Of a stretch of 20,630 nucleotides of DNA, positions 573 through 6,606 are shown piece after piece. Positions within the stretch are counted from its first letter, which is position 1; the number at the start of each line of letters is the position of its first letter. Source of the DNA: Candidatus Heimdallarchaeota archaeon (lineage in GTDB: Archaea > Asgardarchaeota > Heimdallarchaeia > JABLTI01); NCBI GenBank assembly GCA_019056785.1, contig DXJV01000035.1, positions 1-20,630 of the forward strand. Direction: 5' to 3'. Made by a program: the position numbers and the translations under genes. The notes below the pieces were generated by a model. That model saw only the letters and a list, made by a program, of their open reading frames with translations, had not been told where the DNA came from and did not search any database.

Positions 573-662
573 CAACAATAGGTTTATATATGAAAGCCGG
601 ACACAAGATTATAATATACAAGATGTAGTGGTTTGTGCCTAAAAAAACACTAGGAGTAGTAT
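573..662 (+). promoter_or_regulatory. Promoter of nrdR-nrdD: BRE/TATA plus tandem NrdR boxes
   Basis: caacaa (573-578), TTTATATA (583-590), box1 atacaagatgtagtgg (616-631), box2 acactaggagtagtat (647-662). The boxes fit the NrdR consensus acaCwAtATaTwGtgt (box2 more loosely) and are offset by 31 bp. Confidence 0.8.
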
Positions 663-713: not shown

Positions 714-3128
714 ATGAAATGCCCGTATTGCGGAAGCCCCAACACTCGTGTGATAGACAAAAGGCTATCAGAGGACATGAAATACAATAGGCGACGCAGA
801 GAATGTATGCAATGTAAAAAACGATTTACAACCTATGAGCGGGTTGAGGATATAAAACTAACAGTAGTAAAGAAAGACAAACGTCGGGAGCCATTCGATC
901 GAGAAAAGATCAAGCGAGGAATACAAAAGGCTTGCGAAAAACGGCCGATAAGTATCGAAGAAATCGATGAGATTGTTGACGAGATTGAGGGCGAGCTCCG
1001 GCAATATGACGAGGTTGAGATAGATTCCCAGGTTATCGGGGAACTTATTATGGAGAAACTTCGGGAGCTGGATGAAGTTGCCTATATTCGTTTTGCATCG
1101 GTCTATCGACGGTTTACAGACATTGCCTCCTTTATGAAAGAGCTTGAAAAGTTGAAAGTTGTGAAGGAAGTCAGTGTCAAAGGGCACGACTCGACTGAGC
1201 TCCTCTTGATGGTTGCCGGCGACACCCGAGAAGAAATTTCCAGCTGGGATAAATCAAAGATAACTCAAGCATTAATGCGCGAAGCGGGATTGCCAAAAGT
1301 TGAAGCTGAAATAATTGCTAATGAGGTTGAGCGTAAAATCTTTGCCTCGGGCATTCAAACCATCTCTGTGGATTTGATTCGTAGCCTAGTTGATAATGAA
1401 TTGTTTGTACGGGGATATGATACCAAGTTACAACAACAAAGGATTTTGGGTATTCCTACCTTCGACCTCAAACAATTGATACTTTCCAAGAGCAAAGAGA
1501 ACAGCAATGTTGTTGCCAACAATCCCGAAGCGGTTAATCTTGCCATTGCTGAAACTATCTTGAAGAAGTATGCACTTCAAGAGCTCTTCAGTCCTGAAGT
1601 GGCAAATGCTCATCGTAAAGGGCGCATTTATCTCCATGATCTCGGTTTCCCGGTGCGAGTCTATTGTTCCGCTCATAGTTTAGAATATATTAAGAAGTAT
1701 GGTTTGAAACTCTTGAATCTTTCAACCATTTCCCGCCCAGCAAATCATGCCGATACTCTTACGGGACATCTTAATACTTTCCTAGCATCCATGCAAGCCT
1801 ATTATGCAGGTGCGTTGGGTCTTGCTTATCTTAATATCTTTTATGCCCCCTATTTTGTTGGGGTGCCTTACAAACAGATCAAGCAAGAAGCACAAAGGTT
1901 GATTTATTCTTGTAGCCAAAATGCCTTCTCCCGTGGTGGGCAGACATTATTCGTGGACTTCAACATCCATCTTGGAATTCCCAATTATCTCCGGGACATT
2001 CCAGCCATTGGACCTGGTGGAAAGTACACCGGTAAAACCTATGCCCATTATGAAAAAGAAGCGCAGCTGTTTGCCAAGGCGCTAATGGAAGTTTGGATGG
2101 AAGGCGACGCTCAAGGAAAAGTCTTCCCCTTCCCGAAGTTTGACTTGCATGTGGATCAGACGAGCTTTGATGACCCCGAGCAGTTCAAGCTCTTACAGTA
2201 TGCTTGTAAGGTTGCTTCTGAAAATGGTTCCACTTACTTTATCTTTGACCGGGACGAGGTCAACTTGTCCATGTGTTGCAGACTAAAAACTACCATTCGA
2301 GACACCTATATGATTGAACACCCAGAAAGCATGCGCTATTGTGGTTTCCAAAACGTGAGTATTAACTTGCCACAGGCAGCTTATCGTGCTGGGAAAGGTA
2401 ATATCAATGACTGTATCAGTCAAATAAAAGAAGCAATGGACATTGCTATGGAAGCACATCTCCAAAAGAAAGCTTTTATCCACAAATTGATGACCACTGA
2501 AAACGGCACCCTCTGGCAGATAGGCAAAACCGCCGAAGACGGGCGCCCTTATGTGGATCTTGAAAAAGCGACCTATATTATTGGCGTCATCGGTCTCAAC
2601 GAATGTGTTCAATATCTTATCGATGAAGAGCTTCATGAGAGTGAAGAAGCCTACAAATTGGGTTTGCGAATCATTGCTGCCATGAATCTTAAAGCAAAAG
2701 AGTTGGAGAAAAAGTATGGCTTGAAAGTCACTCTCGAGGAAACTCCAGGAGAAAGCGCGCCATACAAATTTGCTCGCACAGACATTCGTGAATTTCCAGA
2801 GAGCATCCATTACGTAAAGGGTGACCTGGACACCGGAGCAATTTACTATTCCAACAGTGCGCACTTTGCTGCAGAAGCACCAATTGATATTATTGAACGG
2901 ATCACTAAACAAGGACGATTTAATACTTTAATTGAAAGTGGCTCTATTACCCACATCTTTATTGGTGAGCAAAAAATCGATCCTGCATCCATCCTCAATC
3001 TTGTGAAGAAGAGCTGGCTTCATACTCAAAGTGCACAAATTGTCTTCTCACCGGAATTCACGATTTGTAGAGATTGTGGAAAGGTAAGTCGGGGATATGG
3101 CAGAGCCATGAGTGAAATGGCTCAGTAA
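714..3128 (+). CDS. nrdR-nrdD: NrdR repressor fused to class III (anaerobic) ribonucleoside-triphosphate reductase catalytic subunit; lacks the C-terminal glycyl-radical loop
   Basis: aa 1-~150 are a full NrdR (MKCPYCG..TRVIDKR..RRRRECxxCKKRFTTYE, VVKKD..REPFDREK ATP-cone, LDEVAYIRFASVYRRF). A second ATP-cone follows at ~aa165-235. NrdD core motifs: AHxKGRIYLHDL, VYCSAH, RGGQTLF, FPFPK, SMCCRL, SINLP, IGVIGLNE, EETPGES, YYSNS, GSITH, ending FTICRDCG. RBS aggtga at 701-706. Confidence 0.93.
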   Translation: MKCPYCGSPNTRVIDKRLSEDMKYNRRRRECMQCKKRFTTYERVEDIKLTVVKKDKRREPFDREKIKRGIQKACEKRPISIEEIDEIVDEIEGELRQYDEVEIDSQVIGELIMEKLRELDEVAYIRFASVYRRFTDIASFMKELEKLKVVKEVSVKGHDSTELLLMVAGDTREEISSWDKSKITQALMREAGLPKVEAEIIANEVERKIFASGIQTISVDLIRSLVDNELFVRGYDTKLQQQRILGIPTFDLKQLILSKSKENSNVVANNPEAVNLAIAETILKKYALQELFSPEVANAHRKGRIYLHDLGFPVRVYCSAHSLEYIKKYGLKLLNLSTISRPANHADTLTGHLNTFLASMQAYYAGALGLAYLNIFYAPYFVGVPYKQIKQEAQRLIYSCSQNAFSRGGQTLFVDFNIHLGIPNYLRDIPAIGPGGKYTGKTYAHYEKEAQLFAKALMEVWMEGDAQGKVFPFPKFDLHVDQTSFDDPEQFKLLQYACKVASENGSTYFIFDRDEVNLSMCCRLKTTIRDTYMIEHPESMRYCGFQNVSINLPQAAYRAGKGNINDCISQIKEAMDIAMEAHLQKKAFIHKLMTTENGTLWQIGKTAEDGRPYVDLEKATYIIGVIGLNECVQYLIDEELHESEEAYKLGLRIIAAMNLKAKELEKKYGLKVTLEETPGESAPYKFARTDIREFPESIHYVKGDLDTGAIYYSNSAHFAAEAPIDIIERITKQGRFNTLIESGSITHIFIGEQKIDPASILNLVKKSWLHTQSAQIVFSPEFTICRDCGKVSRGYGRAMSEMAQ

Positions 3129-3174
3129 TTGAGTGGGAAAAAATCTAACAGAACTAATAGAGGAATAAACCAAA

Positions 3175-3417
3175 ATGGCTAAAATCGAACCCGAACCGAG
3201 AAAAATAACAGAATTAGAAACAACAATAGAAGCAAAAGAAAGTCACAACGCAGGTGATCAGCTGAAACCACGCTGTCCATACTGTGGCTCTGAAAATGTC
3301 TACGGTATGAGTAGAGTTGTGGGCTATTTCAGTATCATTGAAAATTGGAATCGCTCTAAAAAAGCCGAGTTAAAGAGAAGGCAACAAGGCAATTATTGGT
3401 TTGACAACAAGTCCTAA
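3175..3417 (+). CDS. Stand-alone NrdD C-terminal glycyl-radical/Zn-ribbon subunit
   Basis: CPYCGSENVYGMSRVVGYFSIIENWNRSKKAELKRR is the canonical NrdD C-terminus (CxxC, RxxGY with radical Gly50 at 3322-3324, WNxxKxxE). It has its own RBS gagga at 3160-3164 and an in-frame TAA at 3166-3168 upstream. Confidence 0.9.
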   Translation: MAKIEPEPRKITELETTIEAKESHNAGDQLKPRCPYCGSENVYGMSRVVGYFSIIENWNRSKKAELKRRQQGNYWFDNKS

Positions 3418-3515
3418 ATTGCCTTGTTTGTTTTTTCCCCTTCTCTTCTTCCTTTTATTTTCATTAATTCCTTCCTTATGTTGATGGCCCCTAATCCGCT
3501 GGAGTTTGTCTTTGG

Positions 3516-3605
3516 CAACAACAAATTTAAATAGTGATGTTTCCTCAAAGAATATGCCATACAAGATGTAGTGGGTAGCACTGAAAAAAACACTAGAACT
3601 GGTGG
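3516..3605 (+). promoter_or_regulatory. Promoter of redoxin-nrdG: BRE/TATA plus tandem NrdR boxes
   Basis: caacaa (3516-3521), TTTAAATA (3526-3533), box1 atacaagatgtagtgg (3559-3574, identical to 616-631), box2 acactagaactggtgg (3590-3605). Same 33-bp TATA-to-box1 and 31-bp box-to-box offsets as the first promoter. Confidence 0.8.
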
Positions 3606-3659
3606 TTACCTTCACTTATTCACTTTACTCTAAAAATATTCATGAAAAACGAGGGAAAA

Positions 3660-3926
3660 ATGATGACAACGAAATTAAAAATCTTCACAAAAAAAGATTG
3701 CCCGAATTGCCCCTTGGCAAAAAAGATTGGAAAAAAATTGGAAGGCCAGGGTGCAAATATCGAATGGTTTGATTTAGATGAGGAGATAGGTTTAACCGAA
3801 GGAGTCTACTTCGATGTAATGGCGACTCCAACATTAATCCTCACTGATGAAAACGATAATGAACTTCTTGCGTGGCGTGGAGAAGTGCCACCCATTGAAA
3901 CATTACAAAAAGAATTAAAACTGTAA
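3660..3926 (+). CDS. NrdH/glutaredoxin-like thioredoxin-fold protein (CPNC), likely RNR reductant
   Basis: KIFTKKDCPNCP...VMATPTLIL (CxxC plus the cis-Pro TP motif). RBS gaggg at 3651-3655 favours ATG 3660 or 3663 over 3642. Confidence 0.82.
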   Translation: MMTTKLKIFTKKDCPNCPLAKKIGKKLEGQGANIEWFDLDEEIGLTEGVYFDVMATPTLILTDENDNELLAWRGEVPPIETLQKELKL

Positions 3927-3942
3927 GAGATGAAATAGACGC

Positions 3943-4647
3943 TTGCCAGACCTAGAAATTAAAGGCTATAGACAATCATCATTAATTGAATGGCCGGGAT
4001 TGTTAGTTGACAGTATCTTTCTTGCGGGATGTGATTTCCGCTGCGGGTACTGCCACAATCCTGATTTAATAACTGTTGACAAAGTAGAGAGCTATGACGT
4101 CAATGAAGTATTAGCAGAAATAGATAATAGAGCTAAAACAAAATGGCTGGATGGCATTTCCATCACTGGTGGAGAGCCAACCCTCAGTAAACGCTTGCCA
4201 GAGTTTCTCAGCATCCTTAAAAAGATGGGATTAAAAACAAAAATAGATACTAATGGGCATCATCCTGCTGTAGTGAAACGATTGCTTGATGAAGGACTAC
4301 TTGACTATATTGCTATGGATGTAAAAGCCACCCCTGAGAAATATCCTTTAGCTGTGAATATAAAAGTCGACTTGAAGAAAATAAGGAAAACCATTTCTTT
4401 AATTATTAATTCCGGCATTGAACATGAGTTCCGAACGACTGTTGTTCCGACCATCGTTGAGCCTGAAATGGACATTCCTATTATCGCAGAGATGATTACA
4501 GGGGCGAAAAGATATTACTTGCAACAATTCCGACCAATACGCTGTCTTGATAAAAAATTCGAATCTTTAGAACCCTATTCCTTAACACGATTGGAAGCCG
4601 CCTGGAAGAAAGTAAAAGACAAATTTGAAGTCTGTGAGATCCGTTAG
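3943..4647 (+). CDS. nrdG: Anaerobic RNR activating enzyme (radical SAM, NrdG2-type)
   Basis: SLIEWPG, GCDFRCGYCHNP (CxxxCxxC), ITGGEPT, KIDTNG, DYIAMDVK, EFRTTVVP, LQQF; lies next to nrdD. TTG start. Confidence 0.92.
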   Translation: MPDLEIKGYRQSSLIEWPGLLVDSIFLAGCDFRCGYCHNPDLITVDKVESYDVNEVLAEIDNRAKTKWLDGISITGGEPTLSKRLPEFLSILKKMGLKTKIDTNGHHPAVVKRLLDEGLLDYIAMDVKATPEKYPLAVNIKVDLKKIRKTISLIINSGIEHEFRTTVVPTIVEPEMDIPIIAEMITGAKRYYLQQFRPIRCLDKKFESLEPYSLTRLEAAWKKVKDKFEVCEIR

Positions 4648-4761: not shown

Positions 4762-6606
4762 GTGACTAAAATTAAACAATTAAAACACAATGGCATATTA
4801 GTTGTCCGCTACGAGCCAAAGGGACTTTCAATTACAATCAAAGGTAAACCTCATAAATTGACGCCGAAGCAAGAGGAAATGGCTCTTGCTTGGGTGAGAA
4901 AACTTTCAACTCCTTATGTTGAGGACCCGGTGTTTTGCAAGAACTTTTTCGAGGATTTCAGTAAAGAGTTAGGTATTGAGGGGCTTACTGACGAAGATAT
5001 CGATTTTTCAGAAGTTATTGATTATGTTGAAAGAGAGCGCCAAAAGAAAGAAGCAATGAGCAAAGAAGAGAAGAAAGCCGCTCGGGAAGCGCGCAAGAAA
5101 AAACGCGAAGAATTGAAAGCTCATTATGGAACTGCAATCCTCGATGGACAAGAAGTTGAAATCTCGAATTGGACTGCTGAACCTAGTAGTATTTTTATGG
5201 GGCGCGGTGAACACCCCTTGCGTGGCCGTTGGAAAGAAGGACCAACTGAAAAAGACATTACGCTTAATTTAAGTCCGGATGCTCCTGTGCCTGAAGGAGA
5301 TTGGAAAGAAATTGTTTGGAATCCTGACTGTTTGTGGGTTGCCAAATGGGAGGATAAATTAACAGGAAAGACAAAATACGTTTGGCTTTCAGATAGTACA
5401 CCCATTAAACAGAACCGAGAAATCGAGAAATATGATAAGGCGCGAAAAGTTGGCGATAACCTCAAGAAAATTCGAAAAGCAATCCTCGAAGGGATAAAGT
5501 CTCCGGATAAACGAACACGCAAAGTTGCGGCAGCATGTTATATTATTGATAAAATTAACATGCGTGTCGGAGATGAGAAAGATGAAGATGAAGCTGATAC
5601 TGTTGGCGCTACGACTCTAAGACCTGAGCACATAAAAATTGATGGAAACAAGGTGACGTTCCATTTTCTTGGGAAAGATTCGGTCGAATGGCATAAAGAA
5701 GCAGTATTTCCAGATGAAGTAATTGCTGTGTTACGAGAGTTAATTGAAGAAGCTAAACAGAGCCCAGATGATAAGCCTCAAATTTTTTCAGATGTTGGGA
5801 GTAGGCATGTTAATGCTTTTCTGGGCGAAATTGTTGATGGCTTAACAGCAAAAGTCTTTCGTACATATCATGCTTCGAACGTCGTTCGACAAGCTCTTGA
5901 TGAAAGTGATGTCTCAGAGACTGACCCTGATTTTGTGAAAAAAGAGGCTGCAGTAATGGCAAACCGTGAAGCGGCAATTATCTGCAATCATATGAAACAA
6001 GAGCCAAAGAATTTTGAAAATAGATTACAGCGCTTCAGAGAACGAAAATTGAAGGCCAAGGAACGGATCGAAAAAGCCATTGCAAACCGGCAACAGAGAG
6101 AAGCCCGATTAGTGGAGTTAAAAGAAAAGTTACAGGAACGGAAAGCCCAACTTAAAGAGCAAGAATCATTGTTAGCTCAAAGAAAAGCAGACTTGCTTGA
6201 GCTCAAGAGCCTTCCCAAACCTGACTCGGCAAAGGAGCAAGCACGGTTGAAAAAAGCAATTGAACGGGCGAAAAAGAAGGTGGAAACCCAAAAGAAACGA
6301 GTGGAAAGTGCCAAGAAGAGAATTGAAACGGTGAAAGGACAAATAGACCGGGCGAAGAACAGTCTTGGTACCGCCAAAGAGCGGATCTACAAGGCCGAAC
6401 TGGCGCTTCGGAAAATTGAATCTCAAGAGCGGATTAGTAAAAAAACGAAGCGTCTTAACCTCGGGACAAGTCTGAAATCGTATATTGACCCCCGTATTTA
6501 TTACAATTGGGGAAAAGAAGTTGATTATAATTGGCGAGATTTCTATTCAAAAACCCTTCAGAAGAAATTTTCTTGGTTAGAAAGAGGAGAAAACAATAAA
6601 GAATAA
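4762..6606 (+). CDS. DNA topoisomerase IB (archaeal, eukaryote-like long form)
   Basis: LKHNG, FMGRGEHPLRGRWK, KYDKAR, RVGDEKDEDEADTVG, FLGKDS, GLTAKVFRTYHAS, ANR..AIICNH, a coiled-coil linker, and NLGTSLKSYIDPR with the catalytic Tyr at 6481-6483. GTG start after gaggttga. Confidence 0.95.
   Translation: MTKIKQLKHNGILVVRYEPKGLSITIKGKPHKLTPKQEEMALAWVRKLSTPYVEDPVFCKNFFEDFSKELGIEGLTDEDIDFSEVIDYVERERQKKEAMSKEEKKAAREARKKKREELKAHYGTAILDGQEVEISNWTAEPSSIFMGRGEHPLRGRWKEGPTEKDITLNLSPDAPVPEGDWKEIVWNPDCLWVAKWEDKLTGKTKYVWLSDSTPIKQNREIEKYDKARKVGDNLKKIRKAILEGIKSPDKRTRKVAAACYIIDKINMRVGDEKDEDEADTVGATTLRPEHIKIDGNKVTFHFLGKDSVEWHKEAVFPDEVIAVLRELIEEAKQSPDDKPQIFSDVGSRHVNAFLGEIVDGLTAKVFRTYHASNVVRQALDESDVSETDPDFVKKEAAVMANREAAIICNHMKQEPKNFENRLQRFRERKLKAKERIEKAIANRQQREARLVELKEKLQERKAQLKEQESLLAQRKADLLELKSLPKPDSAKEQARLKKAIERAKKKVETQKKRVESAKKRIETVKGQIDRAKNSLGTAKERIYKAELALRKIESQERISKKTKRLNLGTSLKSYIDPRIYYNWGKEVDYNWRDFYSKTLQKKFSWLERGENNKE

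Follow-up and report, generated by a model that had tools for sequence, protein, structure and literature searches.

Organization of the nrdD locus

The window, that is, the whole stretch of DNA analysed, comprises 20,630 nt of contig DXJV01000035.1 from assembly GCA_019056785.1 (Candidatus Heimdallarchaeota archaeon; 2.87 Mb, 82.5% complete). The features of the locus are listed in Table 1.

Table 1 Features of the nrdD locus, in coordinates of the window
Feature	Position	Strand	Remarks
56-nt element, copy 1	605..660	+	Direct repeat ahead of nrdD-L; contains the NrdR-box-like 14-mer ACAAGATGTAGTGG
nrdD-L, large chain, 804 aa	714..3128	+	NrdR-type Zn ribbon aa 1-42, ATP-cone(s), NrdD barrel aa 262-793
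First zinc knuckle, C785-R-D-C788	3066..3077	+	On the large chain; both Cys invariant in the alignment
Spacer nrdD-L/nrdD-S, 46 nt	3129..3174	+	GAGGA at 3160-3164, 10 nt 5' of ATG; in-frame TAA at 3166-3168
nrdD-S, small chain, 80 aa	3175..3417	+	ATG at 3175, TAA ends at 3417; charged leader aa 1-33
T-rich stretch	3418..3470	+	Candidate archaeal oligo-T terminator, from sequence only
56-nt element, copy 2	3548..3603	+	Ahead of the redoxin-nrdG pair
Thioredoxin/glutaredoxin-like protein, 94 aa	3642..3926	+	CPNC; weak profile matches; candidate reductant
nrdG, radical-SAM activase	3943..4647	+	TIGR02495 (NrdG2), 187.5 bits, cut-off 131.15

The large chain matched Pfam families PF22811, PF03477 and PF13597, the last over positions 1-518 of a profile of 562 (376.7 bits, cut-off 26.2). 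It also matched TIGR02487 over positions 1-537 of 581 (354.1 bits, cut-off 326.35) and TIGR00244 (NrdR) over positions 1-147 of 147. The finger loop (M-C-C-R-L) contains C521 and C522, both invariant among 67 homologues, and either one could be the thiyl site. The C-terminus reads TIC785RDC788GKVSRGYGRAMSEMAQ and is followed by the stop codon TAA (3126-3128); C785 and C788 align with the first cysteine pair in fused relatives. An initial annotation of this DNA had described a large chain that stops after its first CxxC, and the ORF does end past C785RDC788.

The same annotation had placed CPYC, SRVVGY and WNxxKxxE on a downstream ORF in another frame, provided with its own ribosome-binding site and preceded by an in-frame stop. 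All of these were seen: nrdD-S carries C34-P-Y-C37 (3274-3285), SRVVG50Y (G50 at 3322-3324) and a WNRSKKAE helix, its frame differs from that of nrdD-L (3175 mod 3 = 1 vs 714 mod 3 = 0), and the GAGGA and TAA of the spacer are as given in Table 1. The two frames are nowhere open at the same position, so a single frameshift cannot join nrdD-L to nrdD-S, as had also been claimed. PF13597 was the sole Pfam family matched by the small chain (profile 507-560 of 562), with TIGR02487 matched over 541-580 of 581, and the chain aligned to residues 697-735 of P. copri NrdD (8P23) and 603-642 of T. maritima NrdD (4COI). Residues C34, G50, Y51, W58, K62 and E65 are invariant among 64 stand-alone homologues. 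The radical glycine of the RVxGY motif has no place on the nrdD-L polypeptide and is supplied only in trans, by the 80-aa chain.

The two 56-nt elements are 77% identical, and the exact 14-mer occurs in the 2.87-Mb assembly at positions 618 and 3561 only; it is a putative operator. The short spacer suggests that nrdD-L and nrdD-S are co-transcribed, and the T-rich stretch downstream likely ends this unit. The redoxin matched Thioredoxin_2, Thioredoxin_3, Glutaredoxin and TIGR00411, all below their cut-offs, and the position of its gene is kept in operons of DPANN archaea. The nrdG gene is the only copy in the assembly above the TIGR02495 cut-off.

Conservation and age of the split

Checks against read error and in homologous loci, both proposed in the initial annotation, came out in favour of the split. 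Logan contigs from four runs in four studies span 2900-3500 and match across the junction; within the two genes the sole difference is a synonymous G3411A, and indels are absent before 3437. Nine genomes of the same Heimdallarchaeota family show the split, and so do many from DPANN archaea. Among the nine family genomes, the large gene ends in TAA, TGA or TAG and the two genes stand in four different frame relations, with a conserved start of the small gene. A GAGG-type site at the same distance from that start is kept in the family relatives with upstream sequence on the contig, and spacer length varies. The split is not an assembly artefact and not a pseudogene, and its recurrence in family and DPANN genomes speaks against chance.

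The arrangement is widespread. In 84 of 111 close homologues, for the most part from DPANN archaea, the large chain stops directly behind CxxC-x-[VI]S[RP]G[YF], and the next gene is a radical-domain gene of 48-100 aa. Likewise, a small gene directly 3' of a truncated large gene is present at most of 75 loci drawn from GTDB genomes, which largely bear DPANN labels. The radical domain, described in the initial annotation as a separate protein, is thus conserved as such across family and DPANN genomes; the DPANN small chains have no charged leader. Two other assemblies contain the same operon (nrdD-L, nrdD-S of 48-55 aa, redoxin and nrdG), and in both of them the stop of nrdD-L and the start of nrdD-S overlap, as is typical of translational coupling. 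Fused relatives are colinear across the break point, with the pattern C-x2-C-x10..30-C-x2-C. On the homologue tree the split or fused state can be explained with 6 changes, compared with 24 in shuffles, indicating that the split is old and heritable.

The initial annotation had allowed that the split may have precedent. This proved true of the databases, in which many such ORFs are deposited under the labels 'anaerobic ribonucleoside-triphosphate reductase' or 'hypothetical'; a full-text search of the literature found no description of a split NrdD. In a preprint on Tn7 (10.1101/2025.07.27.667033), nrdD appears only as a transposon attachment site.

Ribonucleotide reductases in the family

A search for PF02867 (class I/II ribonucleotide reductase, RNR) found no match in any of 12 genomes of the family, which are 64-92% complete. 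Each of these genomes has one truncated NrdD, where assembled, and no radical domain was found on any assembled large NrdD of the family. Other partners for the small chains did not emerge: the present assembly contains no second NrdD barrel and a single nrdG above its cut-off, and this genome has no match to the PFL-type Gly_radical family PF01228. The split class III enzyme is the one RNR found among the family's 12 genomes. Incomplete assembly could have hidden a second RNR or an NrdD of full length, which the absence of either in 12 of 12 genomes makes unlikely. The radical subunit had been proposed to be obligate, and the family genomes agree with this, showing no other NrdD radical domain and no other RNR class; the small chain would therefore be obligate for NrdD in the family.

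Unlinked paralogues of nrdD-S

Three small genes were found in this genome against one large gene, the two extra copies being unlinked (contigs C65 and C57). Across the family the unlinked copies occupy two syntenic sites, one in 12 of 12 genomes and the other in 7 of 12, and all small-gene copies retain the CxxC, the SR[VI]VGY loop and the WNxSK helix. Core dN/dS was 0.03-0.25 over all loci and 0.03-0.16 for nrdD-S orthologues, indicating that the paralogues and nrdD-S are under purifying selection. A tree of 31 small proteins was poorly resolved because the sequences are short, and orthology was taken from synteny. At least five DPANN genomes with a split operon also contain a second, unlinked copy. 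The occurrence in this family of two extra unlinked small-gene copies is new here.

In this genome the neighbours of the paralogues are roadblock/LC7 genes, uvrA and an HD-domain gene; oxidative-stress genes were not found among their flanks. The paralogue at the uvrA site has no ATG, GTG or TTG in five genomes, and it reads TAA in this assembly where four other contigs read CAA. Copies at site B begin with weak or odd start codons. The 14-mer (allowing up to two mismatches) was absent near the paralogues on C65 and C57, so nothing ties them to RNR regulation, and common regulation was rejected. An origin as copies of the nrdD 3' end that integrating elements had left behind was also rejected for this family, given the synteny of the sites between species and the constraint on the genes. 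All interface and radical residues are preserved in the paralogues, which therefore most likely dock on NrdD-L too, either as alternative or as replacement radical subunits.

Zinc site and model of the complex

The break point falls between the two cysteine pairs of the NrdD zinc ribbon, so a Zn(Cys)4 site would need both chains. In the alignments all four cysteines are present and conserved, two per chain. The complex of the large (L) and small (S) chains was modelled with an ipSAE of 0.92 in three runs, compared with 0.00 for the best of three controls. Of 80 solved complexes, 58 reach the mark used for this score, as do 2 of 110 mismatched pairs; this calibration is only rough for L·S, which was modelled with custom alignments and a riding Zn. 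The runs agreed in at least 72% of contacts, with a partner pLDDT of at least 64. L785-S34 and L788-S37 are among the closest pairs, residues 522-523 of L touch the small chain, and the leader of S makes no confident contact.

A zinc site divided between polypeptides had been claimed in the initial annotation, with a two-chain model as the proposed check. The claim is in line both with the position of the break and with the model, which places C785/C788 beside C34/C37 and so brings the four cysteines together. Structures of one-chain NrdD have been solved (8P23, 4COI and 1H78), and the pass of the L·S model therefore shows likeness to them and may reflect structures that the predictor had learned. 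We infer a Zn(Cys)4 site shared by the two chains from homology and from a model that is indistinguishable from recall of the fused structures.

Proposed mechanism

On these data the locus probably encodes a working two-subunit class III RNR. NrdD-L would provide the regulatory N-terminus, the barrel with C521/C522 and the knuckle C785/C788, while NrdD-S, translated from its own start on the shared transcript, would contribute the knuckle C34/C37, a strand pairing with L residues 780-787 and the Gly50 loop. The inter-chain Zn(Cys)4 ribbon and the strand pairing would hold L and S together, and assembly would set Gly50 beside the finger loop, as in one-chain NrdD. NrdG, whose gene lies 0.5 kb downstream, would generate the Gly50 radical, with the product of the adjacent redoxin gene as the likely reductant. 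The repressor role that the initial annotation gave to the enzyme is hypothetical for the NrdR-like N-terminus.

Comparison with known systems

The locus shares the barrel (PF13597/TIGR02487), the finger-loop cysteines, the C-x2-C...C-x2-C ribbon, the RVxGY loop and an adjacent NrdG with one-chain NrdD and its activase, as known from phage T4 (1H78/1H79), T. maritima (4COI/4U3E) and P. copri (8P23). It differs in that the chain is cut between the cysteine pairs, with the radical glycine and two of the four zinc cysteines on an 80-aa protein, and in that the genome carries two further genes for this radical protein.

GrcA/YfiD of E. coli and Y06I of phage T4, which are cofactors of pyruvate formate-lyase (PFL), are small free-standing copies of a radical domain, like nrdD-S. 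GrcA/YfiD further resembles the small chains in its poorly ordered N-terminal leader, in a gene that lies away from the enzyme gene, as do both unlinked paralogues, and in that the enzyme's activase is expected to act on the small protein (PMC13450708, PMC8683613). GrcA, however, belongs to PF01228 and has no zinc knuckle, whereas the small chains here match PF13597 only. It also backs up an enzyme with its own radical domain, whereas the enzyme here has none and at least one small chain would be obligate.

Class II NrdJa/NrdJb is a parallel in architecture, with a catalytic subunit encoded in two genes and a C-terminal zinc-finger part on the second chain; its zinc finger is undivided between the chains, and extra copies are not described (PMC9669993). 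As in NrdJa/NrdJb, the split is colinear with one-chain relatives and conserved in the lineage, but the likeness is architectural only, class III being compared with class II: NrdJa/NrdJb is B12-dependent, and its second chain has a reducing cysteine pair, not a radical. In the class Ia NrdA of Aeromonas phage Aeh1, a case of genes in pieces, two polypeptides reportedly reassemble into an active RNR; that split is said to stem from a homing-endonuclease insertion and to be a single phage case, not one of a broad lineage.

Alternative explanations

Why the radical domain of this two-subunit enzyme stands apart can be read in two main ways. A neutral fission within the long zinc-ribbon linker, kept as the halves assemble, is a serious candidate, if somewhat short of a probable one; the extra copies would then be dosage or condition isoforms, or competitors for L or NrdG, with no part in repair. 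Fused relatives of the same clade carry expanded linkers of 20-30 residues between the cysteine pairs, which would tolerate a stop and restart, and the state has changed at least 3-6 times on the tree, which suggests that fusion and fission both occur. Moreover, NrdJa/NrdJb is a split catalytic subunit without a repair role (PMC9669993), and the DPANN versions, leaderless and translationally coupled, resemble an ordinary two-gene enzyme. What a neutral origin leaves unexplained are the two unlinked copies, syntenic and strongly constrained across the family, and the recurrence of unlinked copies in DPANN genomes.

The other reading, possible but on the doubtful side, treats the small chains as GrcA-like cartridges. 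O2 would cut only S, at Gly50, the fragments would leave, and fresh S from any of the three genes would restore the enzyme; the split and the extra copies would have been selected for cheap recovery at oxic-anoxic boundaries. Such a role extends the two-subunit explanation and does not exclude it. The three small genes against one large gene are consistent with it, as are the two conserved and constrained paralogue sites, the unlinked copies in DPANN genomes and the retention of the CxxC, loop and helix motifs by every copy. The leader, uncontacted in the model, is reminiscent of the disordered N-terminus of YfiD (PMC13450708), and for PFL it is established that O2 cuts the chain at the radical glycine and that YfiD rescues the enzyme (PMC13450708, PMC8683613). 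On the other hand, the Zn(Cys)4 clasp and the strand pairing could hinder replacement of the small chain, the flanks of the paralogues here are free of oxidative-stress genes, and the start codons of the site-B copies speak against it. Regular exposure to O2 is not evident either, as a search covering COX1 only found no COX1-type oxidase in this 82.5%-complete assembly. Exchange or repair of the small chain after O2 damage, as proposed in the initial annotation, is a hypothesis. The full scheme, a radical cartridge in which NrdG activates S, S clips onto L through the shared zinc and O2-damaged S is replaced from three genes, is unlikely on present evidence.

Restoration of one chain by RNA or protein processing (intron removal, programmed frameshifting or trans-splicing) is highly improbable. 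Excision of 178 nt at 3084-3261 (GTAAGT at 3084-3089, CAG at 3259-3261) would join the frames in phase, but GTAAGT codes for V-S within the conserved tail motif [VI]S[RP]G[YF], a motif that fused as well as split relatives carry in their proteins, and relatives differ in spacer length and frame relation, each with its own ribosome-binding site and start; the intron was rejected on these grounds. Frameshifting is excluded by frames that never overlap open, and a Pfam search found no intein domain at the split site. That the gene is broken or wrongly assembled or sequenced, the organism using another RNR, can hardly be right: other genes may be missing from an incomplete assembly, but the junction recurs in four studies, the split persists in relatives despite differing stops and frames, dN/dS lies far below 1, no catalytic or zinc residue varies and another RNR was found in 0 of 12 family genomes.

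Significance

Annotation and RNR censuses that demand a radical motif on NrdD would misread such genes as truncated. The locus also raises a structural question, that of a zinc site common to two polypeptides and adjoining the radical site. According to a 2026 review, formate lyases alone are known to have spare-part proteins, and whether other glycyl-radical enzymes have them too has yet to be settled (PMC13450708). With a separate radical-glycine chain, three gene copies of it and one activase, the locus is a natural, conserved system in which to test spare parts. If true, the radical cartridge would be the first case of spare parts among glycyl-radical enzymes beyond pyruvate formate-lyase, and it would serve the sole dNTP route in a Heimdall-group archaeon. 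The split enzyme bears on the upkeep of O2-sensitive dNTP synthesis in Heimdall-group and DPANN archaea, in which it is apparently the only RNR.

Organization of the divided nrdD locus

The window stems from a Heimdall-group archaeal MAG whose close relatives are labelled Candidatus Heimdallarchaeota at NCBI. Within the initial 6.6 kb of the window, five plus-strand genes were found 3′ of glmS. The NrdD profile reaches just position 518 of 562 in the large chain (NrdD-L), which terminates 16 residues past C785-x-x-C788, and profile positions 507-560 are matched by the small chain (NrdD-S). The small ORF carries C34-P-Y-C37, S-R-V-V-G50-Y, and W-N-x-S-K-K-A-E, and it aligns to the part of NrdD that bears the radical loop and second Cys pair (residues 697-735 in P. 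copri, 603-642 in T. maritima). The initial annotation had placed the small ORF in a different frame, with an in-frame stop 9 nt before its ATG, and had noted that a single frameshift could not repair NrdD; the sequence bore out all of this, and GAGGA lies 10 nt upstream.

Features of the split nrdD locus and small-gene copies in the source genome (G000)
Feature	Position	Strand	Description
56-nt element, copy 1	605-660		before nrdD-L
nrdD-L	714-3128	+	804 aa; NrdR-type Zn ribbon aa 1-42, ATP-cone(s), NrdD barrel aa 262-793 (profile matches)
NrdR portion of NrdD-L	714-1160	+	aa 1-147
nrdD-S, linked	3175-3417	+	80 aa
56-nt element, copy 2	3548-3603		before the redoxin-nrdG pair
thioredoxin-like gene	3642-3926	+	
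nrdG	3943-4647	+	NrdG2-type activase
topoisomerase IB gene	4762-6606	+	directly 3′ of nrdG
Small gene, site A	contig C65, L022:1492-1704	-	70 aa
Small gene, site B	contig C57, L002:1432-1635; G000:C57:32307-32495		67 aa, TTG start

A complete NrdR is fused onto NrdD (TIGR00244 covers 1-147 of 147, E 1e-59), and the three-domain architecture PF22811+PF03477+PF13597 was frequent among large-chain homologues; locus L061 instead encodes the NrdR-like protein in a gene of its own (153 aa), whose end lies 1 nt 5′ of nrdD-L. The topoisomerase IB is eukaryote-type, with Topoisom_I_N, the catalytic core, and the C-terminal domain. The two copies of the 56-nt element are 77% identical; the assembly contains no further exact match to its 14-mer ACAAGATGTAGTGG, and a copy with one mismatch lies at G000:C16:8636.

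Authenticity and conservation of the split

Near-identical contigs were present in vent and marine-sediment metagenomes. An assembly error had been raised as a possible refutation; Logan contigs (assembled public metagenome runs) covered positions 2900-3500 in four runs from four studies and agreed across the split junction, the sole in-gene difference being the synonymous G3411A. The split was also kept, as the same annotation had proposed checking, in eight other genomes of the GTDB family (12 genomes), where the large gene ends in C-x-x-C-G-x-[VL]-S-R-G-[YF]-G-R with a brief, variable tail and is followed ~45-85 nt 3′ by a small gene of 77-81 aa. Across the family genomes, the large-gene stop is TAA, TGA, or TAG, the two genes show four frame relations, and the spacer sequence varies, with a conserved GAGG site and start (mostly M-E-Q-A). 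This pattern is at odds with decay or recoding and, at the sequence level, agrees with selection for separate translation of two proteins.

Among linked orthologues, the small-gene core (CxxC to end) had pairwise dN/dS values of 0.03-0.16, and the leader evolves several times faster than the core. The linked leaders (alignment A2) share K-x-T-E-[IV] ~20 residues before CxxC, a motif absent from unlinked paralogues and DPANN versions.

No match to a class I/II RNR large-subunit family was found in any of the 12 family genomes (64-92% complete), while control genomes matched as expected, and wherever NrdD was assembled there was one truncated barrel per genome; no RNR other than the split enzyme was thus found in the family. 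The source genome holds a single NrdG above the cut-off, and a profile search found no PFL-type glycyl-radical domain in it.

Predicted complex of the two chains

The two-chain check proposed in the initial annotation was performed by modelling L(255-804), Zn, and S in three runs with three controls. The model gave an ipSAE of 0.92 in three runs, compared to 0.00 for the best control. In calibration, the ipSAE mark was reached by 58 of 80 solved complexes and 2 of 110 mismatched pairs, which holds roughly here, as self-made alignments and a riding zinc depart from its conditions. The runs shared at least 72% of contacts, with a partner pLDDT of at least 64. The most certain predicted contacts pair strand L780-787 with S41-46; C785 comes to lie beside C34 and C788 beside C37, S50-52 is near L472 and finger loop 522-523, and S residues 1-29 make no confident contact. 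Because one-chain NrdD structures have been solved, the high score demonstrates likeness to them and could reflect fused structures already known to the predictor.

Unlinked copies of the small gene

The source genome contains three small genes versus one large gene. Site A, flanked by roadblock/LC7 genes, is occupied in all 12 family genomes; site B, just 3′ of uvrA, is occupied in seven, and another site is used in two. Every family copy keeps CxxC, SR[VI]VGY, and WNxSK, and core dN/dS across all loci was 0.03-0.25. DPANN genomes carrying the split operon likewise had a second, unlinked copy in at least five cases.

The site-B copy of the source assembly reads TAA at a position that is CAA in four further metagenome contigs from this population (77-aa product P0074). 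The TAA reflects strain variation or an error rather than a fixed pseudogene. Site-B copies L015, L021, L044, L046, and L048 (genomes G006, G007, G002, G005, and G004) are 80-81-aa open frames right after TGA, without ATG, GTG, or TTG before CxxC. They carry ATA at the position of the ATG in genome G009, 7-8 nt 3′ of GAGGG, and their core is strongly constrained; judging from sequence, non-canonical initiation may be used.

In another Asgard genome (L139, G198:C6:6500-13000), a full-length fused NrdD lies ~2 kb from a 146-aa open frame repeating its last ~110 residues, both Cys pairs and radical loop included, which may represent either a 3′-end duplication or a spare part of greater size. Three proteins or open frames of 110-150 aa (L140 at G336:C152, L137, L138), one from an Asgard genome and two from bacterial MAGs (anammox and Thermodesulfobacteriota), have unrelated N-terminal sequence followed by the radical loop and WNxSK helix of NrdD, without CxxC.

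Distribution and history

Most of the 120 best matches to the last 245 residues of the large chain (57-83% identity) terminate at this same point; their sources are Asgard archaea, Woese-, Micr-, Iain-, and Aenigmarchaeota, and a number of bacteria. About 35 are fused, reading C-x2-C, a 10-30-residue linker, and C-x2-C-G-S-x-N-V-x-G-[IM]-[ST]-R-[IV]-V-G-Y, so the break falls in the zinc-ribbon linker. Two loci from other assemblies have the order nrdD-L, nrdD-S (48-55 aa), thioredoxin-like gene, nrdG, with the nrdD-L stop overlapping the nrdD-S start and a GGAGG-type site within the L tail. A stand-alone small gene lies directly 3′ of the truncated large gene in most of 75 GTDB species-genome loci (fused in four). 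An exhaustive search gave 351 clusters at 50% identity; 108 of the 150 best were 130 aa or shorter.

When 111 large chains were placed on a tree with the tail left out, the split/fused state required six changes versus 24 in shuffles, with at least three changes forced by well-supported branches; the Heimdall clade of 22 is all split. NrdD elsewhere in the phylum is mostly fused and only ~25% identical to the source NrdD, and the split operon therefore belongs to a clade that it shares with DPANN archaea.

Discussion

The data support well a functional two-chain NrdD whose small subunit carries one half of the zinc ligands together with the radical glycine; a zinc site shared between the chains is a strong prediction from homology and the model. 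One-chain NrdD is the parent family, whereas in the large chain the defining radical glycine is supplied only in trans. Split class II NrdJa/NrdJb is an architectural analogue (PMC9669993), and full-text literature searches found no description of a split NrdD. GrcA/YfiD is a functional analogue of the small chain but belongs to another sequence family, is without a zinc knuckle, and serves as a backup for an enzyme with its own radical domain. A June 2026 review lists such spare parts for formate lyases alone and leaves it undecided whether other glycyl-radical enzymes have them (PMC13450708).

A serious alternative is that nrdD underwent neutral fission and the extra copies are isoforms. Exchange of the small chain and repair of oxygen damage are plausible, and conservation of the extra small-gene copies makes them more attractive.
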